A stretch of DNA of 60,150 nucleotides, counting the filler, from Jimgerdemannia flammicorona (lineage: Eukaryota), in the NCBI GenBank assembly GCA_003990765.1. It is 3 parts of 3 records of this genome, joined end to end, with 100 filler letters (N's around TTAATTAATTAA, not from the genome) between each part and the next. Parts side by side here need not be neighbours in the genome. Positions count along the whole stretch, not along the records: positions 20,089 to 40,075 come from RBNJ01001787.1; 2 more parts are not named here. The stretch is one strand, 5' to 3'. Both the position numbers and the translations under genes were made by a program. Below, piece by piece: positions 3,001 to 51,035 of the stretch (positions within the stretch are counted from its first letter, which is position 1; every line of letters starts with the position of its first letter). The notes under the pieces were generated by a model that was not told the DNA's origin, did not search any database, and was given only the letters and a program-made list of their open reading frames with translations.

Positions 3001-3528
3001 CACTAAAGAACACAACCTTTCCGTCTCCAACCAGTCCGCCAACCCACCACTTTCCCCTCACATACCTCTCCCTCCATCAGTCCTGTCCAACTCCTTATCC
3101 CGTACCATGTTGAAGTCCCCTCCCATACAGTCTAACCCAACTTCTCCCAACAAACCAGCCTCTTTCAACCTGCGAATCCAATCCACTCTCTCCCCTCTCT
3201 CTGCTGGGCAGTAACAAGACCCAACCGTCAGCGAGCCCCATCCAGGCCTCTTCCATACTCCCCACACCACCCTTGACCCCCAATGTCCAATGTCCCCAAT
3301 GTCCCCCATCCCTTTCCGAATAAGAATACCCACTTTCCCCCTCCAAACCACTGTACCCCCCCATTCCTTAGTCCAATCCTGTAAATTCACATCTGCCTCA
3401 TACCAAACATCCTGTAACAAGAAGAGGTCCACATCCAGACCCCGAAGCCAACCAAAGATGTACTTCCTCCTAGCCGCCCCCCATAACCCATTAACGTTCA
3501 ATAAAAATATCCTTATTATACTGTTCAT
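1..3528 (-). pseudogene. LINE ORF2: APE endonuclease + reverse transcriptase + C-terminal CCHC region, several premature stops
   Basis: EN motifs LNVNG, LQD, GGDFN, SRIDW, SDH; RT motifs NWRPI, DQEKAYD, GVPQGDPLSP, AFADD, YLGI; C-terminal CEDC...H...C; split into ORFs 3058-3558, 1183-3042, 394-1119, 112-384. Confidence 0.92.
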
Positions 3529-3559
3529 ATTGAATAGAAATTGTAAAAGAGACCTCAAC

Positions 3560-5473
3560 CTATAATTCCATGCTCATCTCATCCCTCGCCAAGTCCAAGA
3601 GCCGCTCAGCTTCCAATTCACCCTCCGCAATATCCCAAGCATCCAGTGCCCTCAAGATTTCCTGACACTCCACCCTGTCCACCTCCTCCATATCCACCCT
3701 GTAATCCAAGCAGACTGCGCGCCACTTCTCTAGTCCCTTCCTCGAGTTCCACAAGACAAGTGCCCAGTCACTTGCAATCCTTCTAAGCTCCTCCTCTCGC
3801 TGATCATCAACCTGATTGACCGACTCCAGGAGGACAGCCAGGATCTCATTCCTCATCTTCCTCGGCACCTCTTCCCCATGTAGAATCTCCTCCCAATGCC
3901 TCTCCTCCATCACCCTGAAGTCCTCACCCCCCAGCTCCTCAGCTGCTACCCCTTCCAGGGTCTTCCACATCCACTTCTCCTCATCGACTGCCTCTGCCGC
4001 CCCCTGAGCAATCTGTCCCCCATCCACCTCGGGGTCCACCAGTGTGCTCCTCCTCACTGACTCATCCCACTCCTCATCTGGCACATCCATCAGCTCCTCC
4101 TCACCTCCTGCCCCATTTGGAACACTATACTGAGGGCGCCCTCCTTCTCCCATTTCAGTATCCACCTCCAAGTTATCCTCCTGCTCCTCCCCGACTCCAA
4201 TCTGAGCCCCACCCTGGGCCATCTCTCCCTCTTCAGCCCAGGCGCTCTCCCGCAACCCTGCAGCCCCCGCCCCAGAGCTTCCACCAGCCCCACCCCCACC
4301 CAACTTCGCTAACAACTCCTTCTGAATCTTCCTCCCCTGCAACTTCTCCCAGACCCCCTTCTCCATCCTAACCCTCTTCCCATCCACCTCCCCCACCACC
4401 ATCCTTGTCTCAAATTCCTTTCAGGCTAATCTCCTCCTTGCAACTGCCCCTTCCAGATCCTCCAGAGCCTCTAACAGATCCTCCTCCTCCTCCTGAGTCC
4501 CCTTCACCCTAGTGACCTTACACTCTACCGGTCCCCACCTCAGTGCTGCTGGCCAGTCCCTTGACTTCCCCATATTCTCCTTTCCAGCCAGTCGCACCCT
4601 GACATCGACGTCTCCAGTCCTGAGCTCCGTGCCCTCCCAGACCTTGAACCCAATATCCACAATCTCGCCATACTCCTTGATCGCCTCCACAACCAACTCC
4701 CTGGTCCTTTCCTTCGACACCATAGGGAGGTCCAACACTGTCAACTGTACCACCCGGGGGTCCCAGCGCATACACCGGGCCATAGAGACCACAACCCCGC
4801 CAACCATCACCCCCTTCTCCATGGCCACCAACAAGGCGTCCTCCTCCTCAAACCCCACCTCAACCCCTTCCTTTCCCCTCAAGAACTTCACCGATGCCGC
4901 TCCCTTAGCCTCCTGCACCACCAGCCCCAAAATCATTCTCGCCGTCACAGCCAAGCCTCGGAAGCACATCGTGACCGCGAATTTGGACCTCGACTTCTTG
5001 AGTAATGGGGCCGACACCATGCCTGTCACCCCATCCGCCAGGTCCCCGGGCCTCATGCCCCCTCCAAGTCCCAAATTGCCAACCACCATCACATCTGGAT
5101 TTTTTACCAGATCCCCAGTCACAGCCCCATCAGCAGTCACATCTCCAGCCCCTACTCCGGCCCCTTCCCTACCACCAGAAGCACTCTGGGGTGTATCTCC
5201 CTGACCCCCAGCAGTAGCCATCGATGCCTTCCCCAGTCCCAGCCAACTATCCAGCCCAGAAGCCATCTTCCCCATCCTGACCTTATCAGCAAAGGTCGAC
5301 CGCTCCCCTCCTCTCTGCCTCAGACCTCCCCTCCCTCTGCTGCTGGGGCCCTGGCTAGCCATAGAGGCCCCTGGCATCCCCAAACCATCTCCCCTCCTCT
5401 CCACCTGCTGCCAGCCAAAGGCGCCGTCACCCCCCTGGTCAGTACGCTCACCAGATCGATCATTGCCATCCAT
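3560..5473 (-). pseudogene. LINE ORF1 (~637 aa; RRM-like core, acidic C-terminus), one premature stop at 4421-4423
   Basis: ORFs 4421-5473 and 3560-4402 are in the same frame; the sister copy has Trp at the stop; lies directly upstream of ORF2. Confidence 0.88.
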
Positions 5474-5555
5474 GTTGTTAGTCGTCGGGCACCAAAAACA
5501 TTGTAAAAAGTGTTGTCTAAGTTTTGTGTCACCCGAATGTTACTGGTGCAAGGGA

Positions 5556-6427: not shown

Positions 6428-9400
6428 ATGGATATGAGACCACCAGTATTCTATGGATATACCTCAGATGAATCAATCATTACCTTCATTGACGATTTCG
6501 AGCAGTATGCTGCCGTAAGGACTCTGACAGCAGTACAGCAAGTAGCCCTCATGCCCTTTAGCCTACGAGGTCCTGCCAGAGCAGCATTCATAGCCGCAAC
6601 CCATGCAGGAAATGATGCGGATGCTATACTGACAGCACAGAAGACCTGGCTCTGAAATACATATTACACAGACGAGATCAAGCAAGCCCTGAAGGATCAG
6701 CTCAACACAACATGCCAAGGAATGAGCGAGGATCCAAACACATTCTATACCAGAATTCGATACCAGATAATCCTTGCAGATTATGCTGCTGCTATCTGAG
6801 ATCAAGTAGCCGAAGCAACTTTCATGAAAGGAGTCCATCCAGAAATAGCCATGGCCATCTGCTCATCACCAGTGATTCTGGATCTGCCACAAAAGGTCAC
6901 CTATGCTCAGCGATACTGGATAGCCAGACACCCATAAGACCATACAATGGAGAGAGTTACAGGAGTCAGAATTGAGGCACCCAAGGCAACCAGTGTGATC
7001 CCCACCACAATGATCAATCGAAACACACCTCAGCCAAAAGCTACCGAGCAGCAAAAGAGCAGCGACCCTATGGAGGAACTTGCCAAAAGGTTTGCTGAAA
7101 TGACTGCCCACCTAGGAGATATGGTAAAGGAAATCTGAGGAAGAGATCGCCGCCCTGTTCAGAAGTTTGCTGCCACCTCAGACAAGAAGAAAGGTACCTG
7201 CTATAGCTGTGGAGAAGAAGGCCACTACTTCTACGAATATATGAGCGAAACCAAATGCAAGGCTCAACCAAGCAATGCCACATGAAACAAGGAGCAGGCC
7301 AATACAATCACCTTTGAAGAAATCAGAGAATCTGATGAAGAGAAATGGGAGGCCTACCCTGCTCAGACCACCAGGAAGGATGTTCACAAAGAACCCTACA
7401 AGAGACCACCAGGAAGACCCAAGAAGAACCCAGTGGAAAAGCAGATGGAAACTGACACAGAAAGCCAAGCTGAAGAGATGGACCAGGATATCAAGCTGGA
7501 GCAAGCAGTTCAAGACATCATTCAAGGAACCACTCTAGCCAGTGAAGGAGAAAAAGAAAAGAAGCTTCGCAAAACCAAGACCTTCAAGTATGATATCTTC
7601 AAGGATCTCAGCCAACAAAAAGTCAATGCAACCTTTGGCCAGCTGGCAGAAATACCTACATTCAGACAGCAAATGAGATTCGGACTTGCCAAAACAACTA
7701 AGGAACAAGGATGAAAGATAACTGAGACCAACAATGTTCAAGAAGACTCAGGAGAAGAGAGTGAAGACAACTGCAAAACTTCTGCCTATGCAACTTGCCA
7801 AATTGAAGATAGAATCTTTGAAGCCATCATTGAGGGAGCAGGAGGATGTCTCCTCAGTAAGAAGGCAGCAGACCGCCTAGGTTGGGATGTGGAAGAAGCA
7901 ACTAAGCTAGTATTTGTCACAGCCGATGGCACAAGAGCCACACCTCTGGGAAAGATCCGAGATGTTCCCATCAAGATTGGAGGAGCAACAATCCCAGTAG
8001 ATGTAATTGTAACCAATGCCACTAACTATGACATCCTCATCAGCAATCAATGGCTTCACAAAGCCAAGGCAGTAATTGATCTCAATGCTCAGAAGATGCA
8101 GATCACCTACCGGGGACAGAAGATACAGATCTCCATCAATGTCAACAAAGGAGTCCTGCCCGATATGGAGGAAGAAGAGAGTGAGCAAGAGGAAGCTTAT
8201 ATGGTGACTACCCCAAAGAAGAAGAAAGTTGGATGGATGAGTGAAGAAGAATGGTGCAAGAAGATCACAGAAGGTTATGCCCCACAAGGAGTCTGTCCTT
8301 ATGGAATCAAGATGTACTGTATAGAGCATATCAATGATTGCTACCAGTGCATCATCGGAACCAGGAAGATCTACCAGGAAAGAAGCCAGAAAGCTCTCGA
8401 AAAACAGATCAGGGAAGAAGAGGAGGAGGAAGATGATGAACCACCAGCCCTCCTGGAGGACAGTGATGACAAAGAAGAAATCAAGGTCAAAATTCAAAAA
8501 ATCCACCCTGATGCAGTCTTGCCAGAATACAAGTCAGAAAATGCAGCCAGAATGGACATCGCTACAGTAGAAGAAACTGTACTTGAACCCCAGACAACCA
8601 CCCTACTTACAACTGGACTAGAGATGACCATCCCAAAGGATCATGTCGGGATTCTCAAGACAAGAAGCAGTCTGGCTAGAAGCGAAATCACAATTGAAGG
8701 AGGAGTCATTGATTCAGACTATACTGGAGAAATTCTACTCATTGCTAGGAACCACAATCCTACAATTCCATTCCCAGTCAAGAAGAAGGACCGATTGGCA
8801 CAGATGTTGATCTTCCCAATCATACAGCCAAGGATCCTAGAAGTCAAGAATCTGGAGGAAACGAAAAGAGGAAAGAAAGGATTCGGATCCACAGGAAGAG
8901 GAGCGTTTGCCAGCACCAAGATCACCGAACTCGAGCACAAGAAGGAGGAAAATATGAGCAAGCACAGTTACACCATTGGAGATGAATTCCCACTCAAGGA
9001 AGAACTCAAGAAAATACTCCACAAATTCGAGGATGTCCTTGCCATAGATTTCAAGGATATCAAGGGAAAGACCCCACACTACTATCATGAGGTAGATACT
9101 GGAGACACCGAACCAATTTATCAGAAAGCAAGACCTGTCCCGCCAGCCTACTGAGAGTGGCTCAGAGAAGAAATCAAGCAGATGGAAGAAGCCGGCATCA
9201 TCAAAGAAGCCAGTAGCCCCTGGTCTTCACCAGTTGTACTAGCCCCAAAAAAAGGAAGCAAACCTGGAGAATTTGCCCTAAGGCTCTGTATCGACTACAG
9301 AAAGCTCAATGCAGTCACCAAGAAGGATCGCCAACCACTGCCGCTCATCAGCAACATCCTTATAACACTGGGAGACGAAGCACAGTACTACAGCACCTTG

Positions 9401-10417
9401 GACCTATACTCAGGATTCCACCAAATCAGACTCACAGAAGTAGCAAGTGAAAAGTCAGCCTTCATCACCCCAGATGGAACCTATATCTACCTACGAATGC
9501 CATTCGGAATGTGCAATGCACCAGCAAGCTTTCAGCGAATGATGAACAAAATCTTCCACTATGACATGGGAAGATGGATGATGGTCTATGTTGATGATGT
9601 AATCATCTACAGCAAGACGGCTGAGGAACATCTGCAGCACATACAGTAGATAATGGAGAGACTAAGACAACATGGCCTTTATATCAAACCCAAGAAGTGC
9701 AAGTTTGCGGAAATCGAGATCTCCTATCTTGGTCATATCATCAATCGAGATGGAACACACATGGACCCCCTCAAGATACAAGCGGTAGCAGCATACCCAA
9801 GGCCCACTACTGTCACAGAAGCCCAAGCCTTCATGGGACTTGCCTCCTACTATCGCAGATTCATTAGAGGATTCTCCAACATCGCAGGCCCAATCTATGA
9901 ACTCAACAAGAAGGATACCAAGTTCCAGTGGACTGGCAGACAACAAAAAGCATTTGACGAACTCAAGGTTAGACTAACTCAGGCACCTATCTTCAGATGA
10001 CCCAATTGGACCCAGGAATTTATCCTTCAGATGGATGCAAGCACACAGGGACTAGGAGCAGTCCTAGCTCAAAAAGAAGACAAAAAGGAGTATGTCATTG
10101 CATATCTTAGCTGTGGAACCCAAGGAGCTGAAAAAGAATATGAATCCTATAAGTTGGAGTGCCTCGCAGTCATCTGGGCTGTGGAAAAGTTCCACTACTA
10201 TCTGGCCGGAAGACACTTCACCATCCAGACGGACCACTCAGCTCTCACCTGGCTACTGACAACTGGACAACCCAAGGGAATCTATGCCAGATAGATAATG
10301 AAGTTACAAGCCTATGATGTAACTATCATGTACCGCCCTGGAAGAACAAATTCCAATGCAGATGCTCTCTCACGGATACCTCGAACTACCTCCAACCAAC
10401 AAATCAATCATGAATAA
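6428..10417 (+). pseudogene. Gag-protease-dUTPase-RT-RNase H polyprotein in a single frame, interrupted by point stops
   Basis: ORFs 6182, 6947, 7433, 7889, 9182, 9653 and 10031 share one frame; knuckle CYSCGEEGH; degenerate protease site AIIEGAGG; RT SPWSSP, LCIDYRKLN, MPFG, YVDD; RH DAS, E.LAVIWA, TDH, ADALSR. Confidence 0.9.
8483..8900 (+). CDS. dut: dUTPase domain between protease and RT
   Basis: All five trimeric dUTPase motifs: AARMDI, KTRSSLA, GGVIDSDYTGEI, DRLAQML, KRGKKGFGSTG. Confidence 0.92.
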
Positions 10418-11602
10418 GAAGCTCTACTATGGAATTATCACATATCTGGGACAGCGAAAGATGCCCCAACATCTGGAAGAATAGACACAAACGATTATCA
10501 ACAGAACATGGAAACAATTCGAAACTGACAGAGAAACACTGAAGAAAGGAAAACTACTAGTCATACCAGAACATAAGAAGGAGCAAGCAATGAAATCAGT
10601 ACATGAACTTGGCCATCTAGGAGGAACGAATATATATGACAAGGCAAGAAGAACAATATGGTGGCCAGGGATGGAGGAAGATATCAGACAATTCGTCAAA
10701 ACATGCGACAAATGCCAGAAACAGAAACAAGACCAATGGAATCAAGCCCCAGGATCAGCACACATAGAACCAGTACCATTCGCCCATATCGCAATAGATG
10801 TAATCGGCCCTCTACCCTTGACTTTGACTGGCAACTGATACATCATCGTCATCGTAGACCTTTTTACAAAGTGGATAGAAGTGGGACTCCTTATGGAAGC
10901 CAATGCACAGTCAATCACCGATTTCTTCCACAAGGAAATCATCTGCCAGTTCAAGACCCCAACACAAGTAACTACAGATAGAGGAACCGAATTCGTGAAC
11001 CAGTTCTTCGAAGTTCTCTATAAGAAGTACAAGATTCAGTATATTCAGACTACAGCATATCACCCTCAAGGAAACGGACAAGTAGAAAGGACCAACAAAA
11101 CCCTCAAGAATATTATCGCCAAGATCTGTGATAACTATGAGAACTGGGATCACTATCTGCCAATAGCATTATCTGCTCTCCGGGATATCCGATCACAAAG
11201 TACCCACTTTACCCCTTGAGAAATGCTATTCGGAGAAGAATGTTCTCAAGGAACCCTATTATCCAATGGAGATGCTGTATGGAAACATGTGGATGTAGAA
11301 ATATGGAGACTACACCAAATCAGGAAGAAGGCTGAGGATTACATAACCAAGGCACAGACACTGCAACGGAGGAATGCGGAAAAGACCCACAAGCCCCTGG
11401 AGATTATCAAGATAGGAGACAAAGTCCTAGTGTATCGGAATATGGTAGAAGCTTCATGGTCACGAAAACTGGAGCCCAAGTGGGAAGGACCTTACCATGT
11501 GCAAGATATAAAAGGGACTACCTTTTGGCTACAAAAACCCTCAGGCACAATAATCCCACCACCATTCACCGAAACCGACTCAAGAAATATCATGGCCAGT
11601 AA
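10410..11602 (+). pseudogene. Integrase (HHCC, DDE core, GPY/F), in a different frame from RT-RH
   Basis: HELGH...CDKC; IAIDVIGPLP; TDRGTEF; YHPQGNGQVER; KLEPKWEGPY; C-terminal HRNRLKKY after an apparent 1-bp loss near 11555. Confidence 0.9.
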
Positions 11603-12053
11603 CAAAAGTACTACAATGGCACTCAAGATCACTAGTGCTGCCCAAAGAGCCATCAAAAGACAATGGCACACTACGGAGCCTCTGACCATAGAGCCATTCT
11701 ATGAGGATATTCAGAGTATTGTGCAGACTCATCTCTCTCGGATCTCGCACTTTAGAGCCTATCAATACTGGGCAGAATTCCAAGAGTACTTCAAGCTTGG
11801 ACAGGTGCTTAATCAGGATCCAGCAAAGACCAAGGAGGACTGGATTGCCAAGTATCAACTCTCTCACTCACAGATCACTATTCCCAAAAGGATCTACAAG
11901 TTATTCCGAGAAGATGAAGCAGCGATAGACCACCTGAGAGGAGTAATCCCTACTGACTTCGAGAAAGTGAGAAGACATCATTGGGAGACAGTCATGCAGC
12001 AAATTGCACAGTATAAGACCATACAGACCATTGAAGCCTGGGAGTTTGAATAG
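11592..12053 (+). CDS. Unknown accessory ORF3 (153 aa) between integrase and the 3' LTR
   Basis: Stop-free, ATG overlaps the integrase end (cATGGCCAGTAA); decayed homologues sit at the same position in Gypsy family 2. Confidence 0.72.
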   Translation: MASNKSTTMALKITSAAQRAIKRQWHTTEPLTIEPFYEDIQSIVQTHLSRISHFRAYQYWAEFQEYFKLGQVLNQDPAKTKEDWIAKYQLSHSQITIPKRIYKLFREDEAAIDHLRGVIPTDFEKVRRHHWETVMQQIAQYKTIQTIEAWEFE

Positions 12054-19510: not shown

Positions 19511-22442
19511 AGCAAGATATACTGGGCAACATATTTGCTGAGTTTGGATTATTCTTAAGCTGAGACTCCAGTAGATATAAATCTCTATGCTCTAAGGTTG
19601 AGGTATAGCCATCTGACTCTAGTAGAGAGGTCTTGGAGGTAATTGATTTCTCTTTTTTCTATAGAATCTAGGACTTCTATGAAGTTGATAGTATCTCCTA
19701 TCTATCCTTGATAGGTTTCATATCTGATGAGAGCTAGGATGTTATTTCCTAGATCATAGATCTTGAGAGCCCTTTTCTTTAGTTTTCTGGTCTAAATTCT
19801 TCAGATTTAGACTCTGTCATTTCCTCTCTTAAGTATATATATAGTAACTTTTTGGCTGAAATAAATATTCTGATGTAGACAGTCTCAGAAGTCTGGATGT
19901 TTTTTATAATTGCAATATCTCATTGCTTAAAAATATAGCTCTTAGTTATTAACTTCTTGCTATTTTGAAAATTAGTATCTATTTTTTTNNNNNNNNNNNN
20001 NNNNNNNNNNNNNNNNNNNNNNNNNNNNNNNNTTAATTAATTAANNNNNNNNNNNNNNNNNNNNNNNNNNNNNNNNNNNNNNNNNNNNAGATCCTTACTA
20101 CTAAACTGCACTGTCACCCCCCCTGAGGACCCCAACCCACCCACCATCCCTTCAGCAGATCCCCCAACAGCTCCTCTCACCTTGATACCTTCTCCTACAG
20201 CCCCAAACACCACCCCTCCTCAAATACAAAAAGCCAATATCCCACCAGTCCCACCCACACTGCTAACACCCACCCTACAGTGAGCCAGCTATCACTCACC
20301 CCACCCACAAGCCAAGATCTCAAGTCCTCCCAGTGGCCTCCCTCTCCTGCCGGCCTACTCCCCACACCCAGTCTATTCCCTATTTCTACCCAAAATTCCC
20401 CCAAAACCTCACACTCTCCCAACCAATGTTCTGGTATCTGCACATAACCCTCAGCTTACCCAACATTATAGCACTCCTCACAATCGAAACGGCCACCATT
20501 CACCAGGTGCCCAGTGCAGAAATTCAACATGACATTCCTCCACAGCATTCTCCACCATATCACCCAGAACTTGGGAGGAAGCCACCTCTGCACCTCTGCA
20601 CTCCAAGTCCAGATACCTGCCCAGTCCCACTCCTCACTGATCTCTGCTGCCTGCCAGCCACTTGGCCAAAGATCCTGGCCAAGACCCTGCTGATACTCCA
20701 CTCTATCCCCAATATCAAACATAACAAGTGGAGCACCCCCCAGGAGCAGACTCTCCCATTGCCACATACTAGGCCCCCACATCACCTCCCCCTCATCGCC
20801 TTGCCAGCACAGGCCAATCCGGTGTGCTCCATCTACCACTCCCCACCAAAAGCCCTTGAACTGCAGCCACTGAGTTCCATTCAACCCTACCAGAGAGAGC
20901 AGATCACCTGAGGACTCTTGGGGGGAGGTTCTCATCTCCCACACCTTCTGTAGCAGAGGCACCCAACCCCCTTCCTGCAGTTCAGCAGCTCTCTTCAACC
21001 ACCAGGCTTGCAAGCAGTGCAACCTCTTAGGGAAATCCACAAGGCCAAGACCTCTTCTGACCACTGGTGTTGCAAGAGTATCCCAACTGATCTGAGACCT
21101 CCTCCCTGCCCAAATCCAATCTCTAGCCACTTTCATCAGCCTCTTCACCACCCAAGCTAAGAAGTCTAGGTGATAGGCCATGTACTACAGCTTAGGGAAC
21201 CAGTATACATTCAGAGTTATTACCTACCCTGCCAGAGAAATATGGTGGCCTCCCCAACTTCGAAGGGCCTCTCCCCAAATGGTCACCCTGCTCTCCCACC
21301 ACACTTGTGGCAAGACAGAACCATATACAGAAAGGAAGATACCCAGATACTGCACCACCTCGCCAGTAGGGACAATTGTTCCAATGATATCTCCACCCAC
21401 TAGCCCATTCCCAAGCACTATTGTCTCACACTTATGCCAGTTGAGCTTTGCCCCAGAATGAGTCTCATACCATTCCACTGTCTCTCTAAGTGTCTTGACA
21501 TCCACTACAGACCCAAGTCCAACCACCATGTCATCAGCAAAGGCCCCCACCTTCCACACTATACCATATATAGAGAGCCCTGCCACCTTCTGGCGAATCC
21601 TATCCATCAGCAGCTCCAGTGAAAGGGCATAGAGGATAGGGGACAGAGGGCCCCCTGAGGCACTTCTCTCCCCAAGGAAAATGCCAGACCATAGTGACCA
21701 TTACACATCATTGCCATCTGACTACTCTCCAGCAGGTTCAACATAGAAGCCCAAAATCTTGGAGGAACACCAATACAATCCAAAACCTTGCCCAGCCAAA
21801 CTTGCTGTACTCAGTCATAGGCCTTCTCCTGGTCCAAAAAGACCAACCTTCCATCCAGTCCACAAGCCCAGGCCCCTTCAATGACTCCATGCACCCATGC
21901 AGTCCCATCTCTTATAAGTCTACCTCCAACAAAGCCCCACTGCTCCTCCCCTAGCACCTGTTGGGCAACTTTCTGCAGCCTTGCAACAATCACCTTAGTC
22001 ACCAGCTTCCTATCCATATCCAGAAGCATGATCAGTAGTGCTCTGAATGAATGGAGTTGATCCAGATGAGATTCGATTCAGATTCGTCATGTGATGGATT
22101 CGAATCAACTCAGATTGGTCTTGTGATCTGATCTGGATTGATCCATCTGGATTGACCCATCCGGATTGATCTATCCAGATTGAAATCTTTGGTGACCACC
22201 CTTTCTTTTGTTCATTTCACTCTTGTTTTTTTTTTTCTGCTACACTTTGGTGACATCACCCTTTCCTTTGTTCCCTCTCTTTTCTTTGTTCTTTTTCTTT
22301 GTTCTTTCCTGCCACATCACGAGCAAACAAAACAGCAGCTCTTAATTCATACATTGGTCCAGTCTACTCATTTTTCACCCTGCAATAATTATCAAAAGAG
22401 GGAGTATTTGAGGTGGAAATGCACTCTCTGCTGACAATGTTA

Positions 22443-24419
22443 GATTCTTTCTCATATGGACAGCACACAAGCTGCTCATCGAGAGCCAAAGGGGTGATGG
22501 CAGTAGTGGTGGTGATGGCAATGGTGGGGATGAGAGAGAATTCCGGCAACAACTCACGGCGGCCCTTCGGACCTCGGAATTCACAGACCTCACAGCTATG
22601 TATGCGGTAGCCTTTTTGGAGCAGCTGATAGTAGATATAGGTTGCTCACTCGGCCGCCACTTGTTTACTTGTGTTTATTTAAACTTCCCCAGTACAACCC
22701 AATTCACCTCGTGCTTTTCTTAGGGTCCACAGCTCTATGGCGAGATCTGCTGACTTTATTCACAACATCTGATCAAGATGAAGAAAGGCTGGTGGACGTT
22801 GCAGAGCATGCCTTTGGTGGCCAAGCTGTTGAGTCAATGCATCACGTGGCAGAGGTCTCAAAAGGAACAGAAGCAAGCCTTCATGAGCAATTCTTGTGCA
22901 ACTCATGCAACTCGTCAGCGTACAACTCATCAGCATACAGCTCACTCACTCATGCTCTTTTTCTGAAATACCCATCTCCGTGTTTTATTTAATTTCATTT
23001 TACATGGTCTCCCCTTAAAAAACACCCACACCCACATGCAACCTGCATGCAACCTGTCCGCATGCAACCCACCTGCATGCAACCCACCCACATGCAACCT
23101 GCCTGCAACCTGCCCACATGCAACCCACCTATACGCAACCCATCCACATACTTATCTTGGTCCCTCAGATCAGGGCTCAGTTCCATTGAAAAGGAGAGTT
23201 CAAAGTTATCCAAGTTCAACCACGTCTGGCGTCTGATCAAATAGAGAAATTTGAGGGCAAGATGTTCAGCATGAGCAGTACCAGCATCATCATCAAGGCT
23301 TGGGGGTCTACATTCAAATCAGAGCCAATTGTACTTGACCAAGGGGTCCATTGGCCAGCAGGAGTAACCAATGATGAAGAGAACCATATCTATATTAATG
23401 AATGTGGAGAGGTGGTTGCGATGGTGGTAAGGAACCTCTATGGTGACAAGCTTTGCTACCACATCAACAAGATTTGCGAGGATTGCATCAAATACCAGGT
23501 GGCAGGAAAGATGGGGTGAAAAAAGCAAGGAGGGGGGGTTTGGATGGGAATTGGATATACTGCAACACTAGCGAAGGGTGGGTTCCAGAGATCTGAAATC
23601 CCCTGCACTTGTCTCCCTTTTTTTTTTAACCCCTCCCTAGATAAATCACACTCTTCACCAACATACTCTTTTTGATACAATTCCAGGGATGCATAAGATT
23701 CTGTACCACTACAGGAACTTTAGAAGTGCCGTCGAAGAGCAAACTGCGCACAAGCACAACACGGCCTGTGCGGCAATGGCGGCTATGATCTGGGGTTCTT
23801 TGAGCAGATTGGTAGAGTGTATGGCAGGCCAGCTTGGTGGTGATCTCGGTACAGCTGTACATACATTCTTGGTGCAATTTAGCATGCCATATGAGGTAAG
23901 GAGCTCTGCTTTTTTGGGGTGCTGCAGCCCAGGGGGTTTCTGCGGCCCGGGGGGTTTCTGCCCCCCTGAACGCAAAAAGGACTGACTGGTTGCCATCTGT
24001 TTTGGCAGGTTTCCAAGCTGGGGCTCCTGGGGCTAGACCAAGGGCAGGCATCCACCAGCACAGCCTGGCAGTATGAGGTCCTGGGCCAAGGATTCACCCA
24101 ACCATATGCTCGCATCACATCAGGATATGTCAGACACAACCTTTCTCTGCTCATACACACAGATAACAATGTCACCCTGGTAATGTTTTACATCCCGGAA
24201 AGGAAGGGCCCAATCTGGGAGGATAGTGGTGGAGTCTGGTATGACCTCACCTATAGTTTCGGAGTCCCATTTGCAGCCAATACGGCCATCCTATTCCAAC
24301 CACACAATCACTATAGCACCGTTGCCTTCGAGGAGAGCTCGGACACAACAGTTGTCACACTCACAACGGATGATAGACTCATCAAGGCCTGGGACTGGCA
24401 GGTGGAGCAGTTTTTGTAA
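22443..24419 (+). pseudogene. Intron-containing cargo gene, putative TET/JBP-like 2OG-Fe(II) dioxygenase (two TGA stops; 5' start unresolved)
   Basis: Phase-consistent GT-AG introns 22855-23168, 23578-23686 and 23896-24008. Spliced product has GEVVAMVVRNL, GGGVWMGIGY, HxD (IHTD, 24156-24164), GGVWY, and TAILFQPHNHYST (distal His region). Confidence 0.6.
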
Positions 24420-24689
24420 GGGTTAGGCAATCTTTTGTAAGGGTTACATAGCCATTTTGTACAGGTTGGGCAGTCTTATGTAGGGGGGTGGGGCCGGGTG
24501 CCTCTTATGTAGCACTAGCTTAGCCGTTATGCAGGGCCCTACCAGCCCCTTGGCCCTGCTCTGTAATGCCACTGGTGCAGCACTGCGGCACAGGGCTGGG
24601 GTGCCCATGGGACCTGAACCAGTGACTTTGACCACCAGAAATGCCCTCTGACTATCAGAAGCACCCTCCAACTGCCAGAAGCACCCTCC

Positions 24690-25175
24690 ACCCTGGACTC
24701 CTTGGCAGCTTAGGGCTGCCCCTATGCCGCTGGTGAAGGGCCGCAAATTTTGCATGCTCTCTCTGCCTGCCTTGCCCATCCCAGACACTTGCAGCTTGGG
24801 GCTGCCCCTTGCTGCCAGTGGAGGGCCACAAATTTTTGTGCACTCCCTCCACTGACCCTGCACCCGCCAACCAACCCTGCCCACTGACCCGGGCACTGAC
24901 AGCTTGGGGCTGCTCCTCGCTGCTGGTGGAGGGCCACAAATTTTGCACACTCCCTCTGCCTACCCCCCTGACCTGGACACTTGTAGCTTGGGGCTGCCCC
25001 TTGCTGCTGGCAGAGGGCCGCAAATTTTGTGCACTCCCTCCACTGATCCACCCACCACCCACTGACCCACCAACCTGCCCACTGACCCACCCACCAACCC
25101 GGGCACTGGCAGCTTGGGGCTGCCCCTTGCTGCTGGCTGAGGGCTGCAAATATTGTGCGCTCCCTCCACCGCCAC
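24690..25175. repeat. Tandem array of ~6 imperfect units between the two convergent hAT genes
   Basis: Recurring CAGCTTGGGGCTGCCCCTTGCTGCTGG.GGAGGGCCRCAAATTTT...CACTCCCTC with CCAC-rich spacers. Confidence 0.85.
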
Positions 25176-25305
25176 CGCCAACTCCACCCAACTTTGGCTG
25201 CAAACTCCAGGCCGAGTCCTCAGGTTTTTTTTTCCTTTTTTATTATTTTGAAAGGTATTAAATATTCCACAAGGCCAACCAACTTATCCGCAGACCTGCC
25301 GAATT

Positions 25306-27960
25306 TTAGTGGCCTGAGCCCCACCAAGACTTCAGACACATACACACCCAGATTGTCTCAGCATTCAGCACACACCTCTTTGGGGCAATGAGGTCCACCC
25401 CACCTGAGAACACCTGCTCGATGGGAGTGCTGGAGGCAGGAATTGCCAAGTAGTCCCAAGCTATACCACACAGGCTGAGGAAGTCTGTTTGATGCAGCTG
25501 TACACCCCGGTGGGTAGAGCAGTGGTTAGATTAGTCAGTTAAATTGGTCCAACGCCCGCCTGACAACCCACCTTCCACCAGTTGAGTACCTCCAAGCCCT
25601 CCAGCAGGACCACGTGGTTGCTGGCGAGGTAAATGGTAAGTTTGTCTATTGATGGCAGCTCTTTCTCTGATGGCTCCCTCTTCCTCTTTCTGCCGAAGTA
25701 AATGTGAGATAGGAGGGATCCCTCAGCATATTCATCCAGACTTCAGCCGGAACCTTGCAGCGGTGTGTAGTTTTTCCAGTACACTTCAATTACAGCCTGC
25801 TTGGTTCTCTCAATGAAGTGCTGCTCCCTGCCCTGATCTTTATGTTATTGTAGCTTTAAGCATGGGTCCAGCACTGTTCGAAGAAAAGGAGAGTGAGTTT
25901 TTGCAGGGTTTCCTCTATTTTGGAAGAGGCAACAGCCACACACTGACATCGACATACCTGTACTGATTGAGTATACAGCAGTATCTGTTTGGGAGTAGTA
26001 TTTTCTAAGCTTGCTTAGAGCAACCTCTATGGCATCTCTCTGATCCGGGCTTAACCATAAATCACCGCAACCCTCCAGCCTGTCCTCGAGCTTGTCCTCT
26101 AGCCAGTCAATCAGAAGGTTATATACTGGTATCGCAGAGCTTATTGTCGGGGTCATTTGTTTGACTATATCCTTCGTACAATCATCGAAACACTGGCAGT
26201 TATATGTGGTGAGGTATTGTATTGTGCAGAGACAGACAAAATGAGTTTGGAGCCAGGGCAACCACTACTTACTTTCAAAACTCTGACAACATTCCTAAGT
26301 ATGTCCCACTCGCTTTCACCTAGAGCCTCAGCCCATATTTCCTTGTTGGCAGCCATCGTTGAATCTATTGGCTTTTTTTTTTTTTTTTTTTTTTAAAATA
26401 AATCTTCCATTATCTGAAACAGTTGCTTCAGCCAACCGAAGAAAAAAAGGATGCATACCACAGCAAACTCCAGCATGCACTGGATCATTGCAAATGTTGA
26501 GTTCCAATGCATACAGACGTCTAATATAAGCTCTTTCAGGGCTAAACTGATTGCCCTACACTGTGCAGTGAATTTGTCTCATCATTGTGGAGATGATCAG
26601 ACCGACACAACCAGTTTGCGCAGCTTGGAAATTATACTCAGGACCCCTCCTCTCTTGGATGTTTTATCTATGTGTGTAAGATAGTCCTGAATAGCGAGGT
26701 TCAGTACATGGGCCTGGCATCGCACATGGCAGCTTTCTGTACTGAAGGCCATGTTTTCCTGTTTGAGGCTGGCCACTAAAACTTGGAAAAATGTTGAGTT
26801 GTTTGTGGCATTGTCCATCATAATGGCCAAAATCTGTACTTGAAATATTTGGTTGACAAATTTATGTGAAAATAAGTAACCAATAAAATCTGGTTTAATT
26901 TAGGACCTCTCTCAAAATGCCAACCTGATGGCAAGCCCCCCTTTTTTACCTTGGTGGTGATCTCAAGCTCCCGGATACAACTAATAAAAGCATCTGCGAT
27001 GTTGTCTCCAGAATGAGGGCCAGCAAGTTTGATGAAGTCAAGGGTAAGAGATTTAAGCTGCCAATCGAGGTCAATCCAATGACCAGTAATGCCCAGAAAG
27101 TCAAGTCCTTCAGGACTGCTGACACTTGAAAAAATTGGAACGATACACAGAAGATTAGTATGGCCCCTGCACAAGAATGACACTATCTTCCTGAGTGGAT
27201 AGCCCTATATGGGCAAGTAATGCCCAGAAACGAAATTGCATTGGGGGATGTCCATGTGTTGATCGTAAATGAGATTTTGCCTGCTGAATTCTGCTTATTG
27301 AATGTGAGGTTAAATTGGTGAGCTCTTTTATATAATTCAGCTTGCAAAGGTCATGGTGCTACCCTTATTTTACCTGAAGTGTCTGGTGGAGATTGTCATA
27401 CTCCTTTCTATAGGCCTCCAGGACATCTTTGTGAATAGAATCGGTACTTGGCAAATATAAATCATACTTGAGGAGGCCAAAGATGCTATGTAATTGATCA
27501 CTCTCAATGGTTGTGAATGGCTGGTCTGTACACACAATCCAGCGAATGAGCTGATTTCGAAATTCTGCCGAAGAGTATGGCTAAATATTTTTGATTGAAT
27601 GGTGTTGTTGGTACAGAAATGGTCGGGCAATCGGATAAACGTACCCACCACAGCTTGGATGTCAATTTTATTTGTCTCCATGTTCTTTTTGATTTTGTCA
27701 GAGTGCTTGTCTTTTATGTGTCGATTCATGTTTGAAGTCATACCCCTAAGCATTTTGAACTTCTGGCTAGTGCAGTTCATGGGGGTGGATGAAACAATAT
27801 CATGTATATGTCAAAACAATATCATGTGTGTGACAAAACAAAGTGTCAATAGGTGTGTCTTAATTTTTTACCTGCAATAATTACAAACAACATCATCTCC
27901 TATCTTAGCATAATGTTGCCAGATTTTGGAGTGAGGATTGTATGGAAGGTGTGGAACTAT
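25306..27960 (-). pseudogene. Multi-exon hAT transposase
   Basis: BED finger SKIWQHY...CNYC / TSNMNRHIKDKH; TI(N)TWTSPN...FLGITGHWID; MDNATNN; HVRCQAHVLNL; WNST; dimerisation domain DYLAIPASSTPIEQVFS...KR..L..E...MCLKSW; disrupted by the U6 insert. Confidence 0.92.
27100..27215 (+). ncRNA. U6: U6 snRNA-derived retroposed insertion (pseudogene or chimera) with a 15-bp TSD
   Basis: Core AAAATTGGAACGATACACAGAAGATTAGTATGGCCCCTGCACAAGAATGACAC closely matches the conserved U6 core; 5' hairpin AGTCC-TTCA-GGACT; flanked by AGTAATGCCCAGAAA at 27085-27099 and 27216-27230. Confidence 0.88.
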
Positions 27961-28119
27961 CAGGGATGTTTGACTTGAAGCATCATCAGTACTGTGAACT
28001 GTTGAAGACTGATCTGTTGACATGTGTGTTTGTGTGTTTGCATATGCATATGTATGCGTGTGTATATATGTATGTGTGTGTGTTGTGTTGTGGACATGTC
28101 CAGCATATGAGTCATGTAG

Positions 28120-28500
28120 AAGATTTGGATTGGAGGATTCAGTTGAAGGATTTGGATGAGGATTTGGATTGAAGGATTCGAATTGGAGAATTCGAATTAG
28201 AGGATTTGAATTGGAGGATTCGAATTGGAGGATTTGAATTGAGTGATTTGGATTGAGTGATTCAGATTGAGTGATTCGAATTGAGTGATTCGGATTGGGG
28301 TGGTTCAGATGGGTGATTTGGATGGGTGATTCGGATGGGGCGATTCGGATGGGGTGATTCAGATTGAGTGATTCGGATTGAGTGATTCGGATTGGGGTGA
28401 TTCAGATGGGTGATTCGGATGGGGTGATTCAGATGGGGTGATTCAGATTAAATCTGAGTTGATTCAGATGGCTTCAGATTTGAGATTTAGATCAAACCGT
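28120..28500. repeat. hAT subterminal repeat array
   Basis: Many copies of GGATTCGAATT / GTGATTCRGAT[TG]G next to the right TIR; related repeats at 22060-22180. Confidence 0.85.
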
Positions 28501-31500
28501 CATGTGACAAATCGAATCTGGATTTGATTTGAATTGATTCATTCAGAGCACTAATGATCAGTCTCCAGTTCTTCCAGTCTTCCTTCCTCCCCTTATCTTT
28601 GTACAATAAGGCCACTAGCCCAAGGTCCTGCTCTCCCACCCACTCACCACTCTGAAGAACATGGTCACAGAGAGCAGCCATCTCACCCAACACTCCGGGG
28701 ACCTTCACCATCTTCTTCCAGAAGTCCCACAGTAATCCATCCTCCCCTGGTGCTATTCCAAGCTTAGTTGCTACAAGGATACTCTGGATCTCCTCTCCTT
28801 GCACTGGTAAGATCAAGTCACCTAGTCTGTCAACTTGTGGTGGCCCCCACTCCTCTAGCATGTCTACAATTGCCACCTCATCAGCACCCCCTTCTTCCTC
28901 ACTCTACAAACCCTGCCATCTCGCCTTCAGAACCCCTAATATTTGTTGTGTTCCATGCACCATGTCCCCATCAGCATCTAGGACCCCATCCCACCAATGT
29001 TGCACTCTCTTAGCTCTGAGGAGTCTCAATAAGTACCTAGTAGGCCACTCACCCCCCTCAAGTCCCTGCCACCATAGCCTATCTGCCATACCTCACATAT
29101 GAGTCTCCTCCTCCTCTCTCAACATCTGTTGTAGTTCCACTATCTCCAATTTTGCCTGCTCTATCCTCCAATCCTCAACCCTATCCAAAGTAAGCAAATC
29201 TGCCCAATCCATTTGCAATCTCCTCAGCCTGCTGGAAGCACACCTTGTGCACTTCCTCCTCTATCTTCCCACATCTCTACCAGCTTCTCCTCAATAGACC
29301 CTCACAGCCTCTTTCAATCTCATCCAACAGGCCCCCACAGACCAACCCTCATATCTCCAGGTACAGATCTTAGCCTGAATGTCCTCTGCCCAAGAGACCC
29401 ACAACCCCTTCTCGGCCAGCAGGGAGGAGTTAAGGCACCAATGTCTGGGTCCATCTCCACTCCCCCCAAACTGCCCCTGCCCCAAAAGTCCCCAGTGGTC
29501 AGACCACGGGCACCACTCCACCTCTAATGTCTTCCAAACATCAAAACCCCAATACTCAGCTGTCAAAATCCAGTCAATCCTAGTGCCCAGGCCATTCACC
29601 CAATGCATGTAGACCCTGATATTGCCCCACTGTGTTCTGCCTATATCTCCTAAGGAGCTCAAGTTCTCCACCTCCTCCCAAACATCCAGACCTCCACTTC
29701 TCCCCCCTGCATTCCTCCCTCCATCAGTTCTGTCAAGAAGCTGATCCTGAACCATATTAAAGTCCCCACCAAGAACATCGACCCCATCCTCCAAGAGTAT
29801 ACCCTCCTCCAGCAGCTCCTTAATCCATGCAATCCTCTCGCCCCTCACTGCTGGACAGTAGCAAGAGCCAACTCTCACCGACTCCCATCCTACCCAATGC
29901 CAATCTCCCCAAACCAATCTATCCCCCCAGCTTCTGATTCCCTCCAAATCACCTCTACCCTTTCTCACCAGAATCACCACTTTTCCAAACCAAGCAGTAG
30001 CCCCCCCCCCATTCCCTAGTCCATTCTATCTGATCATCCTCATCCTTACATCATATGGCTTGAAGTAAAAAGAGATCAGCCTCCAATCCCTTGAGCCAAG
30101 TAAAAATGTTCTTACACTACCCTGCTTCTCTCAATCCATTTACATTCAGAGAGAAAATATTGGTTGTACTGTTCATAGGAAAAAATATTATATAGTGATC
30201 CCATCCTCTACAAGTCTACATTCAGCTCCTCCTATCCCAAATCCAAGTCATGTTCAGCAGCTAGCTCTCTTTTGCCCACCTCTCTAGCCTCCAACCCTCT
30301 CAGAAGTTCTACCATAGCCCCATCTTCCCTCTCCTCAAAGTCCTCATGATACTCCAGACAGACCTCCTGCCAGAGCTGCAAACCATGATGCTCTGCCCAA
30401 CAGTAGGCCACCTGCTCACCAGTGACCACCACCAGCTCTGCCTTCCTTGCCTCATCAACCTCATATCCCTCCTCCTCTAGGAAGATTGCAAGAATCTCTC
30501 CCTTCAGTGCTTCCACTACTCCGTCGCCATGCAGAATCCGTGCCCAATGCTCCTCAGGCATTACCCACAGGTCCACCTCTCCCAATGCCTCTGCTGTGAG
30601 ATTATCCATCACCTTGCTCATCCACAACAAGTTCCCCACCTCCTTCCCTCCTGGAGTCCCCAGCCGCCCTGCGTCCAACATCGTAGTGTCAGCACCTACA
30701 CTGGCAGCCTCATCCCACTCCTCCTCAGGGACATCCACCAACTCATCCTTGCCAACTGCCACCACCTGGCCCCCTTTCGTCACATCAGGGACCCCAAAGT
30801 GCACTCACTGGGTTCCCTGCATCAGTATATCCTCTGTTGTCTCTCTCTTCCCAGCCAGGCCCCTCCTGATAAGAGAGGGGGGGGTGGCATCCATCTCTTG
30901 CTCCCAAACTTCGAAGGTGCCATCAGCAAATGGGTCCTTGCCCAGACTCTTCCCAGCCCCTGCCTCACTTGCCTCTACCTCCTCTCCTCCTTTGCTAGCC
31001 CAGATACTGGCTTTGATGCCTCCAGACTCCCTAGCTCCAACCACCTTCTTCGTCACCCCTCCTGTCATACTCACCAACAGCTCCCTCTGCCTCTTGCATC
31101 CCTGGGCCTGCTCCCACTGCTTTCTGTCAGTATAGATATGCTTCCCATCTACAACCTCCTGATGTGTTGACTTCTCATACAGCTTCCAGGATTTTGCCCT
31201 CCTCTCTACAGCACCACTCAACTCCTCCAGCGCCTCCAACAAGTCCTCCTCTCCTCTTCACTCCCTTTCACCCTCGACACCTTACAGACGAAGGCCCTCC
31301 ACATCAGCACCAAGGGCCAGTCACTTGTCTTCCCAGTGGCCTCCTTCCCTGCCAGCTGAATCCTGACATCAATATTGCCTATCCTGATTGTTGTTCCCTC
31401 TCACATCTGAAAGCCAATGTCCACCACATCACCATACTCTACCATCACCTCCTCCACTCTCCTCCTAGTCTCCACCTTAGTCACTGTGGGCACCCCCCTC

Positions 31501-40070: not shown

Positions 40071-40175
40071 TTTTTNNNNNNNNNNNNNNNNNNNNNNNNN
40101 NNNNNNNNNNNNNNNNNNNTTAATTAATTAANNNNNNNNNNNNNNNNNNNNNNNNNNNNNNNNNNNNNNNNNNNN

Positions 40176-41607: not shown

Positions 41608-42429
41608 ATATTTTGACTCAATTCAGTCACTGAGAAGGATGTCAATCCTTTGCTCAAAATTAATGATCTTTTTGACCAGCTACAAGATACCAGATACCTC
41701 AGCAGTATGGATCATTTTGTAGGATTCCACAAGATCCCCATAGACTTTAAGAACATTCAGAAAACATCCTTTCTTACTCTAGAAAAACTGTTTGAATACC
41801 TCTAAATGCCCTTTGGACTTTGCAATTCCCCTTCCACCTTCCAGAGAATCATGAAATCAGTCTATGCCCTCTTGATCTACCACTATCTAATTGTATACAT
41901 AGATGATTCCAACATCTATTCAGAAAATTTCAAGATATACCTACACTATCTAGAAGAATTCTTCAAGCACATCCACAAGAACCATCTGAGACTCAATGCC
42001 AGGAAATGCTACTTTGGAAAACAGAAACTTAGATTTCTTAGATTTATAGATTTAAAAGAAATCTATGTAGATTAAAGAAAATGAAGAAGATCAACAATTG
42101 GCCAATACTCAAGACTCTGAAGGAAATACTATCATTTCTGATACTAGTATTCTATATAGAAGGTTTTTCAAGGACTTTGCCCAAATTGCTGCTCCAATCT
42201 GAATCCTTCTCAAGAAAGGAGTACCTTATAAATAGATGGAATCACAAGAGAAAGCTTTCAAAGAACTCATGCACTGTATGACCATAGCACCAATCCTTGT
42301 TCAGCCCAATCTATAGAAGCCATTTATCTTATATAGAGATGCCCCAGCACCTTTCACCAGTAACATTCGGGTGACACAAGACTCAGACAACACTTTTTAC
42401 AACGTTTTTGGTGTCCGACAACTAACAAC

Positions 42430-44346
42430 ATGGACGGCAATGATCGATCTGGTGAGAATACTGGCCAGGGGGGTGACGGCACCTTTGGCTGGCAGCAGGT
42501 GGGGAGGAGGGGAGATGGTTTAGGGATGCCAGGGGCCTTGATGGCTAGCCGTGGCCCCAGTGGCAGAGGGAGGGGAGGTCTGCGGCAGAGAGGAGGGGAG
42601 AGGACGACCTTTGCTGACAAGGTCAGGATGGGGAAGATGGCTTCTGGGCTGGATAGTTGGCTGGGCCTGGGGAAGGCATCAATGGCTAATGCTGGGGGTC
42701 AGGGAGGTGCACCCCAGGGTACTTCTGGTGGTAGGGAAGGGGCCGGAGTAGGGGCTGGAGATGTGACTGTTGATGGGGCTGTGACTGGGGATCTGGCAAA
42801 AAATCCAGATGTGATGGCAGTTGGCAATTCGGGACTTGGAGTGGGCACGAGGCCTGGGGACCTGGCGGATGGGGTGACGGGCATGGTGTCGGCCCCGTTA
42901 CTCAAGAAGTCGAGGTCCGAATTCACGGTCATGATGTGCTTCCGGGGCTTGGCAGTAACGGTGAGGATGATTTTGGGGCTGGTGGCACAAGAGGCTAAGG
43001 GAGCAGCATCGGTGAAGTTCTTGAGAGGAAAGGAAGGGGTTGAGGTGGGGTTTGAGAAGGAAGATGCCTTGTTGGCAGCCATGGAGAAGGGGGTGATGGT
43101 TGGTGGGGTTGTGGTCCCTATGGCCCAGTGTATGTGCTGGGACCCCCGGATGGTGCAGTTGATGGTGTTGGACCTTTCCACGGTGTCAAAGGAAAGGACC
43201 AGGGAGTTGGTGGTGGAGGCGATCAAGGAGTATGGTGAGATTGTGGATGTTGGGTTCAAGGTCTGGGAGGGCACGGAGCTTAGAACTGGAGACGTTGATA
43301 TCAGGGTGAGACTGGCTGGAAAGGAGAATACGGGGAAGTCGAGGGACTGGCCGGCGGTGCTGAGGTGGGGACTGGTGGAGTGTAAGGTCACTAGGGTGAA
43401 GGGAACTCAGGAGGAGGAGGAGGACTTGTTGGAGGCTCTAGAGGACCTGGAAGGGGCAGTTGCGAGGAGGAGATTAGCTTGGAAGGAGTTTGAGGCCAGG
43501 ACAGTGGTGGGGGAGGTGGATGGGAAGAGAGTTCGGATGGAGAAGGGGGCCTGGGAGAAGATGCAGGGGAGGAGGATCCAGAAGGAATTGTTAGCGAAGA
43601 TGGGCGGGGGTAGGGCTGGTGGAAGCTCCGGGGAGGGGGCCGCAGGGTTGCAGGAGAGCGCCTGGGCTGAAGGGGGTGAGATGGCCCAGGGCGGGGCTCA
43701 GGTTGGAGTCGGGGAGGAGAGGGAGGATAACTTGGAGGTGGATACTGAAATGGGCGAAGGTGGGCGACCTCAGTATAGTGTTCCGAATGGGGCAGGAGGC
43801 GAGGAGGAGCTGATGGATGTGCCAGATGAAGAGTGGGATGAGTCAGTGAGGAGGAGCGTGCTGGTAGACCCTGAGGTGGATGGGGGGCAGATTGCTCAGG
43901 GGGCAGCGGAGGCGGTTGATGAGGAGAAGTGGATGTGGAAGACTCTGGAAGGGGTAGCGGCTGAGGAGCTGGGGGGTGAGGACTTCAGGGTGATGGAGGA
44001 GAGGCATTGGGAAGAGATTCTACGTGGGGAAGAGGTGCCAAGGAAGATGAGGAATGAGATCCTGGCTGTCCTCCTGGAGTCTGTTGAGTATCAGGTTGAT
44101 GATCAGCGAGAGGAGGAGCTTAGAAGGATTGCGAGCGACAGGGCACTTGTCTTGTAGAACTCGAGGAAGGGACTGGAGAAGTGGTGCGCAGTCTGCTTGG
44201 ACTACAGGGCTGATATGGAGGAGGTGGACAGGGTGGAGTGTCAGGAGATCTTGGGGGCACTGGATGCTCAGGATATTGCGGAGGGTGAATTTGAAGCTGA
44301 GCAGCTCTTGGACTTAGCGAGGGATGAGATGAGCATGGTATTATAG
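42430..44346 (+). pseudogene. LINE ORF1 (638 codons, one TGG-to-TAG stop at 44155-44157)
   Basis: 575-aa ORF continues in frame to TAG at 44344-44346; copy A has Trp at the stop. Confidence 0.88.
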
Positions 44347-44377
44347 GTTGGAATCTCTTCTACAATATCTACCCAAT

Positions 44378-48038: not shown

Positions 48039-48105
48039 AGGGGTGGGTGTCATTATATTGTTGGTACTATAGACTTCGGTAATAAAGGGCAGTCCAAGAG
48101 ACTAT

Positions 48106-48136
<31 letters not shown>

Positions 48137-50965: not shown

Positions 50966-50967
50966 CA

Positions 50968-51033
<66 letters not shown>
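50966..51033 (+). mobile_element. Near-solo poly(A) retroposition (CATCT + 63 A) inside an LTR
   Basis: Perfect 17-bp TSD GATATTCCCAGAAGCCC at 50949-50965 and 51034-51050. Confidence 0.85.

Positions 51034-51035
<2 letters not shown>

Follow-up and report, generated by a model that had tools for sequence, protein, structure and literature searches.

Does a hAT transposon in the genome of Jimgerdemannia flammicorona (assembly GCA_003990765.1) carry, beside its transposase, an enzyme that could release it from DNA methylation? The question arose from an original prediction that a gene within the element encodes a TET/JBP-like nucleic acid dioxygenase. We analyzed the stretch of 60,150 bases in which this gene lies (the window, to which positions refer unless another sequence is named). 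The window consists of three pieces of about 20 kb, perhaps not neighbors in the genome, with borders at 19989-20088 and 40076-40175 that are each made of two 44-base runs of N around a TTAATTAATTAA spacer; the hAT element lies within the middle piece. The reading that we favor, and consider probable on the sequence evidence, is that this is a dead hAT of the autonomous type whose cargo gene belongs to a small, unannotated eukaryotic family, most likely of divergent TET/JBP-like Fe(II) dioxygenases with a double-stranded beta-helix fold.

The element is 6,518 bp long (22036-28553). An inverted-repeat search returned arms at 22029-22052 and 28537-28560, a 24-nucleotide pair that includes bases of the target site duplication (TSD) and is 96% complementary. 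In the printed arms the terminal inverted repeats (TIRs), TAGTGCTCTGAATGAAT and its exact complement, are perfect over 17 bp, and the TSD, ATGATCAG, is 8 bp long and identical on the two sides (positions are in Table 1). For an empty-site test, the flanks were joined by script with a single copy of the TSD retained. The joined flanks aligned gap-free over the junction to two paralogous long interspersed nuclear elements (LINEs) in the window (1289-2112 and the reverse of 45802-46622), to which they are about 68 to 70% identical; thus, the 6,518-bp unit was inserted into the reverse transcriptase (RT) gene of a LINE. Matches to RVT_1 at 21224-21700 and 21811-22077 lie either side of the left end of the hAT. 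Within the window there was no second copy of the hAT element or of the cargo gene.

The 8-bp TSD with short TIRs places the element in the hAT superfamily, as does the C-terminal dimerization domain of its transposase: minus-strand positions 25306-25530 matched PF05699 with an E value of 1.5e-8 and a score of 34.7 bits against a cutoff of 21.4. The transposase frames upstream of this domain, where the RNase-H-like catalytic core would be expected, had no Pfam or PDB match. Because the transposase is split over many frames and its remainder is without such matches, we call it a remnant. Its WTS motif is preceded by Asn where Asp would be usual. The remnant and the cargo gene are convergent and both lie inside the TIRs. 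The predicted arrangement, a hAT bounded by TIRs and a TSD with a second, intron-containing gene facing the transposase, was therefore upheld by the TIRs, the TSD, the empty site, and the PF05699 match. GC-rich repeats of about 84 to 100 bp separate the 3' end of the cargo gene from that of the transposase remnant.

The cargo gene has four exons and runs from ATG to stop wholly inside the TIRs. Its corrected spliced product has 367 amino acids (aa), compared with 374 aa for P0004, an intronless relative described below. Over exons 2 to 4, as far as the C terminus, the window product aligns with P0004 and continues across both junctions; in tblastn, residues 92 to 167 of P0004 matched 23355-23579 (exon 2). 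The motifs quoted in the original prediction are all present, as are both in-frame TGA stops (23187-23189 and 23517-23519). Three in-phase GT-AG introns had also been proposed. Introns 2 and 3 and the acceptor of intron 1 are corroborated by P0004 and by the metagenome locus L001, but the donor of intron 1 at 22855 had to be given up together with the first exon: the earlier exon 1 (22443-22854, followed by an intron at 22855-23168) has no counterpart in any relative, and 22808-22882, in another frame, matches P0004 and L001. In L001, the exon aligned to this corrected exon 1 stops just short of an identically placed phase-0 intron, and introns 2 and 3 likewise agree in position and phase with those of the window gene. 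As the two proteins are only 28% identical, this agreement indicates that the gene is real and old and that its structure has been conserved.

The relatives of the cargo protein are few. A phmmer search with exon 4 against 1,835,955,588 representative proteins gave five with E values of ≤0.001, four of which are relatives: P0002, the best (82% identity; E value, 1.2e-67), P0003 (48% identity), P0004, and P0006. The fifth, P0005, is a repeat protein matched in seven short stretches and was set aside as a likely repeat artifact. All five come only from metagenomes or read assemblies, and none is named beyond "hypothetical protein." A word-index protein search with P0004 as the query found only P0021; the same kind of search with exon 4 against longer proteins found nothing, and with the family profile it found only P0004 itself. 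The corrected product shares 27.7% identity with P0004 (347 aligned positions) and 28.3% with spliced L001 (350 positions).

Scanning metagenome loci with the family alignment A3 gave four loci, L001 to L004. L001 and L002 share 99% identity along 2,717 bp; L002 is interrupted by stops. L003 (2273-2470) and L004 (2186-2383), with E values of about 1e-3, were selected by the search pattern, lack HxD, and are probably chance matches. No hAT transposase and no window-like DNA were found at L001 to L004; on the short contig of L001 (3.7 kb), neither a TIR pair nor a transposase was found. GATTYGATT-type short repeats, similar to the subterminal repeats of the window hAT, occur at 3480-3620 of L001, about 1.5 kb past the 3' end of the TET-like gene, and might mark one terminus of a related element. 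The cluster of P0006 has 28 members spread over many metagenome contigs (P0016, P0017, and P0019 among them), and some are truncated (63 and 67 aa). Truncation, together with a His-to-Tyr form whose decay is of the kind found in the window copy, suggests that the cluster is a multicopy, decaying gene family.

What kind of enzyme might this family be? P0002, P0003, P0004, P0021, P0007, and L001 have HxD and a distal His with an H-to-H spacing of 50 to 52 residues (in P0004 the putative triad is His283, Asp285, and His335); P0006 has HxN in place of HxD. The His, Asp, and His are kept across lineages of only 28 to 48% identity. The spacing is also 50 to 52 in NgTET1 (229/279) and CMD1 (345/397), according to the CMD1 structure paper (PMC7854593), and it is 50 in gp2 of Mycobacterium phage Cooper (171/221).

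For profile-profile comparison, a Tet_JBP reference (A6) was built from Cooper gp2, which was located with PF12851, and nine other phage proteins, 21 to 71% identical; 9 of the 10 match Pfam Tet_JBP. A second reference, a nonredundant set of 33 phage sequences, combined those of A6 with others from 80 viral contigs. The phage Tet_JBP proteins (Cooper gp2 and its counterparts in related phages, where they are called oxidoreductase or thymidine hydroxylase) gave the best profile-profile match. Against A6, hhalign gave the family alignment A2 a probability of 92.1% (P = 6.3e-7; score, 55.3), A3 78.8% (score, 40.8), and A5 62.0% (score, 41.0). In the alignment of A2 with A6, the HxD motifs of the two groups coincide, as do the Gly-Gly regions that precede the next strand, and the family His-Gly-Thr falls on the phage His-Gly-x-Thr. 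No pairwise sequence similarity was detectable between the groups. Among 100 column shuffles of A2, the maximum was 1.1% (score, 19.7), and the reversed alignment gave 0.1% (score, 14.4). Other dioxygenases also scored low with A2: nine P4H-like (PF13640) paralogs of phage P-SSM2 gave 2.7% (score, 23.3), and the single sequence of Escherichia coli AlkB gave 0.2% (score, 14.9). For scale, the phage Tet profiles themselves scored 28.4 (A6) and 26.6 (33-sequence set) against the P4H-like set. The match, with its catalytic residues in register and scores above those of other families dependent on 2-oxoglutarate (2OG), is moderate and depends on the alignment.

Two further searches agreed in direction. 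With the HMMER filters off, the hidden Markov models (HMMs) of both phage Tet references placed all seven family sequences over every scoring reversed decoy; the best score with the A6 HMM was 15.8 bits versus -0.8 or less for the decoys, and the decayed exon of the window ranked lowest of the seven. In a language-model search of the ESM Atlas, the first match of P0004 was a Basidiomycota cluster (0.96, with 209 of 256 features shared), 15% of whose members carry PF20515, described in Pfam as "Tet-like 2OG-Fe(II) oxygenase superfamily"; a viral cluster with Tet_JBP on 16% of its members came 11th at 0.91. The ten best family-bearing matches all fall in the family or clan of the top one; the same is true for one-third of shuffled proteins.

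Several results weigh against a TET/JBP identity. The profile search that the original prediction had proposed gave no match at an E value of ≤10 to Tet_JBP (PF12851), PF20515, or any other 2OG family of Pfam in the four window pieces, and none to a 2OG family of Pfam in P0002, P0003, P0004, P0006, P0021, or three exons of L001. Neither the family profile nor P0004 had a sequence match in the PDB, and the sole match of P0021 there was an antibody chain (E value, 0.63). AlphaFold2 models were unusable, with a mean predicted local distance difference test score of 36.6 for P0004 (11-row alignment) and 37.9 for P0021 (14 rows). The hhalign probability shifts with the Tet alignment chosen: A2 fell from its value with A6 to 38.6% with 8 actinophage proteins (score, 36.9), 36.6% with the 33-sequence set (score, 38.0), and 5.8% with 2 marine phage proteins (score, 27.4), and with 10 single phage sequences it gave 0.2 to 30.9% (scores, 15.0 to 34.1). 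In the Atlas, the recognition value was 2142, below the 2300 reached by 91% of known families, and the low shares of labeled members noted above, 15 to 16%, are a further weakness. Only one copy with a hAT context was seen, and a single example does not establish regular carriage of the cargo by this hAT family. Exon 4 alone was uninformative in the Atlas (scores of ≤0.82), and a PHROGs search returned nothing relevant.

The remaining difficulty is an arginine. In phage Tet_JBP proteins, the distal His is followed by a strand with an invariant Arg-x-Ser. In the cargo family, the three aligned positions hold first Ser, Thr, or Ala, next any residue, and last Ser or Thr in 6 of 6 lineages (the window, P0002, P0003, P0004, P0021, and L001), the position being taken from a low-stringency hhalign alignment. 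In TET2 (Arg1261 and Arg1896) and in NgTET1 (Arg224 and Arg289), a pair of arginines binds the C1 and C5 carboxylates of a 2OG analogue (PMC7854593). That the 2OG-binding Arg could not be placed had been a caveat of the original prediction, and the caveat was well founded: since all six lineages have Ser, Thr, or Ala, the missing Arg is a property of the family and not of the decayed window copy. With no Arg at the aligned C5-carboxylate position, co-substrate binding in the family would differ from that of canonical TETs. Candidates to replace the Arg lie in a conserved Arg-Gly-Lys-x-Arg segment and at an Arg seven positions N-terminal to HxD. CMD1 of Chlamydomonas, a TET homologue with the TET fold that uses vitamin C, is similar in that it has HxD...H but lacks a working basic residue to bind the C5 carboxylate; according to PMC7854593, its alignable Arg points away from the site, whereas the cargo family has none at the aligned position. 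An active family lacking the 2OG-binding Arg would be a candidate for co-substrate chemistry of an unusual kind on DNA.

How much of this would be expected if the cargo gene belonged to an unrelated family of undefined function, with HxD...H and the weak similarity to Tet_JBP being coincidental or due to generic beta-strand patterns? The lack of Pfam and PDB matches, of a confident AlphaFold2 fold, and of an Arg at the aligned position would fit, and so would the Atlas value under its calibration point and the fall in hhalign probability to 36.6 to 38.6% with other Tet alignments. We nevertheless think it unlikely. Scores of 38 to 55 stand above those of the shuffled and reversed alignments and of the two other dioxygenase families; the metal residues align in register and have been kept in proteins that have otherwise diverged widely; and the best family-bearing Atlas matches agree with one another, a point tempered by the shuffled proteins that do the same. 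The HxD...H triad is general to the Fe(II)/2OG superfamily, and the missing Arg makes the active site atypical for TET, which would leave room for a dioxygenase whose substrate is a protein or a small molecule instead of nucleic acid. This we regard as very unlikely: the P4H-like and AlkB comparisons lie far below Tet_JBP, the phage Tet profiles score lower against the P4H-like set than against the cargo family, and the Pfam families at the nearest Atlas clusters are the Tet-like PF20515 and Tet_JBP.

A separate question is whether the gene serves the element at all. It might be a host gene, or a piece of one, that was captured by the hAT (transduplication), is useless to it, and is an accident of this copy. 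The introns are host-like and are shared with L001, the rest of whose contig gave no match to a hAT transposase; a single hAT copy with the gene was seen, and that copy has decayed. However, the gene inside the TIRs is complete from ATG to stop and is no fragment, its relatives look multicopy with repeat-like decay (the 28-member cluster of P0006 and L002 with its stops), and whole TET/JBP genes have been captured by 11 fungal transposon lineages, according to PMC12730594. On balance, accidental capture is possible but not what we expect. Returning to the cargo as a member of a TET/JBP-like family, then, we find a TET/JBP-like dioxygenase fold quite probable. The predicted identity thus retains moderate support, from the in-register phage match and the Atlas clusters, and lacks the Pfam match, the PDB match, and the aligned Arg. 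By analogy with the transposon-borne TET/JBP genes of fungi, an intact cargo enzyme would oxidize a methylated DNA base, most likely 5-methylcytosine, and such oxidation would be expected to counter the silencing of the element by methylation in a genome with strongly CpG-depleted repeats.

The copy in the window cannot act now. It is, as its sequence reads, a pseudogene: exon 2 contains two TGA stops, intron 1 has lost its donor, and Tyr replaces the distal His. The donor context is now TTC/ATGAGC, and a CpG-to-CpA change from TTC/GTGAGC would explain the loss. HxD has been kept (24156-24164), but with Tyr at the distal position (24312-24314) the metal triad of this copy is not intact. Six aligned relatives (P0002, P0003, P0004, P0006, P0021, and L001) all have His-Gly where the window has Tyr-Ser, in agreement with the proposal that the Tyr is a decayed His; another aligned member, P0016 from the P0006 cluster, has Tyr-Asp there. 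Exon 4 and P0002 differ at 24 residues. Thirteen of these differences require C>T or G>A changes in the window sequence, and three require the reverse transition; five allow or need transversions, and three need more than one step. The observed/expected ratio of CpG is 0.33 in the hAT element and 0.07 to 0.15 in the hosting LINE, within a range of 0.02 to 0.44 for the window, and TpG/CpA is above 1 in 13 of the 14 window stretches measured. CpG depletion with an excess of TpG/CpA fits deamination of methylated CpG. Near the insertion site, two other LINE copies (1186-5539 and 42364-48035) retain CpG where the LINE that hosts the hAT has CpA or TpG.

The original prediction knew of no hAT-borne TET gene, a statement since overtaken. 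Kojima (2025) described TET/JBP genes in 11 DNA transposon lineages of Pucciniomycetes, Agaricomycetes, and Pezizomycetes, among them twenty TET-positive hAT families in Puccinia, named hAT7 after their 7-bp TSD (PMC12730594). The general phenomenon of hAT-borne TET genes has therefore already been published; the element described here is of a different hAT lineage. Like hAT7, it has a gene, here putatively, of TET/JBP type beside the transposase, an arrangement for which escape from silencing was proposed (PMC12730594). Unlike hAT7, its TSD is 8 bp, and in the three hAT7 families given in detail (TET lineage P4) the TET gene is upstream of the transposase in the same orientation, whereas the cargo in the window is downstream and convergent (PMC12730594). 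The TET type of the cargo also appears to differ from that of the rust hAT7: with no Pfam Tet_JBP match and with relatives from metagenomes and read assemblies only, the cargo is probably not of the rust "PU" type. It resembles the PE type of Pezizomycetes and Agaricales transposons in that PE is likewise transposon borne and very divergent, a type whose similarity to TET was found only by HHpred (with weak E values) and by comparison of predicted structures; the hallmark of PE is HxE, however, and the cargo family has HxD (PMC12730594 for PE). Literature searches turned up neither a TET gene on a hAT with an 8-bp TSD nor a TET-positive transposon in Mucoromycota, although the supplements of PMC12730594 may list more families.

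Transposons that carry demethylation enzymes would be a direct counterdefense to silencing, and they have so far been documented in rusts, mushrooms, and Pezizomycetes. The cargo family escapes standard annotation, with five matches among 1.84 billion representative proteins and none in Pfam. It is quite unlikely, but worth stating, that it represents a fourth, unrecognized type of transposon-borne TET-like enzyme, carried on a canonical hAT with an 8-bp TSD and possibly outside the three fungal classes reported. With no Arg at the aligned 2OG position, such an enzyme might use another co-substrate, as CMD1 does with vitamin C, or another binding mode, and it could write a DNA modification other than 5-hydroxymethylcytosine. 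The window copy being dead, what it offers is a lead to the family and to its intact relatives, P0004 for example.

TABLE 1 Features of the hAT element, its cargo gene, and the hosting LINE, in order along the window (TRF, Tandem Repeats Finder)
Feature	Position	Strand	Evidence or remark
LINE-type retroelement (RT) hosting the hAT, left flank	20456-22027	-	RVT_1; resumes right of 28561
Left TSD, ATGATCAG	22028-22035		Identical to right copy; gapless flank alignment to paralogous LINEs
Left TIR, 17 bp	22036-22052	+	Exactly complementary to 28537-28553
Left subterminal 14-bp repeats	22131-22183		TRF, period 14, 3.8 copies
Cargo exon 1 (corrected), 25 codons from ATG	22808-22882	+	Aligns with P0004 N terminus and L001 exon
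Intron 1	22883-23168	+	Donor AT instead of GT, acceptor AG; L001 has GT at the homologous phase-0 position
Cargo exon 2	23169-23577	+	Translation; in-frame TGA at 23187-23189 and 23517-23519
Intron 2	23578-23686	+	GT-AG, phase 1; position and phase as in L001; P0004 continuous across
Cargo exon 3	23687-23895	+	tblastn, P0004 residues 167-227 match 23686-23895
Intron 3	23896-24008	+	GT-AG, phase 0; position and phase as in L001
Cargo exon 4 with stop	24009-24419	+	phmmer relatives; HxD codons 24156-24164; Tyr 24312-24314 at distal-His position
GC-rich tandem and dispersed repeats	24651-25240		blastn self-matches and TRF, 84-bp unit
hAT transposase remnant	25306-28401	-	At least 9 open frames; only 25306-25530 passes Pfam
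Right subterminal 14-bp repeats, about 20 copies	28122-28449		TRF
Right TIR	28537-28553	-	Complement of left TIR
Right TSD, ATGATCAG	28554-28561		Identical to left copy

The rest of the window is rich in retroelements. Among 91 other window frames of at least 110 aa, all Pfam matches above the cutoff were to retroelement domains. The two LINE copies at 1186-5539 (minus strand) and 42364-48035 (plus strand) have RT and an endonuclease/exonuclease/phosphatase domain. A long terminal repeat retrotransposon pol region occupies 7715-12050 (plus strand), with an aspartyl protease and a dUTPase domain (E value, 5.3e-27) in a single frame, followed by RT, then an integrase zinc-binding domain, and then the integrase core. 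Small shares (0.13 and 0.05) of the region's words occur in soil-metagenome DNA sequencing runs of a single study; no RNA run is among the sequencing runs listed as sharing them. Within the last piece of the window, 48100-60150 is extremely depleted of CpG (observed/expected, 0.02 to 0.07). The sole nontransposon Pfam match in the window is there, a match to CDC45 at 59039-59686 (plus strand) that falls below the threshold (E value, 2e-5; 23.5 bits versus a cutoff of 34).

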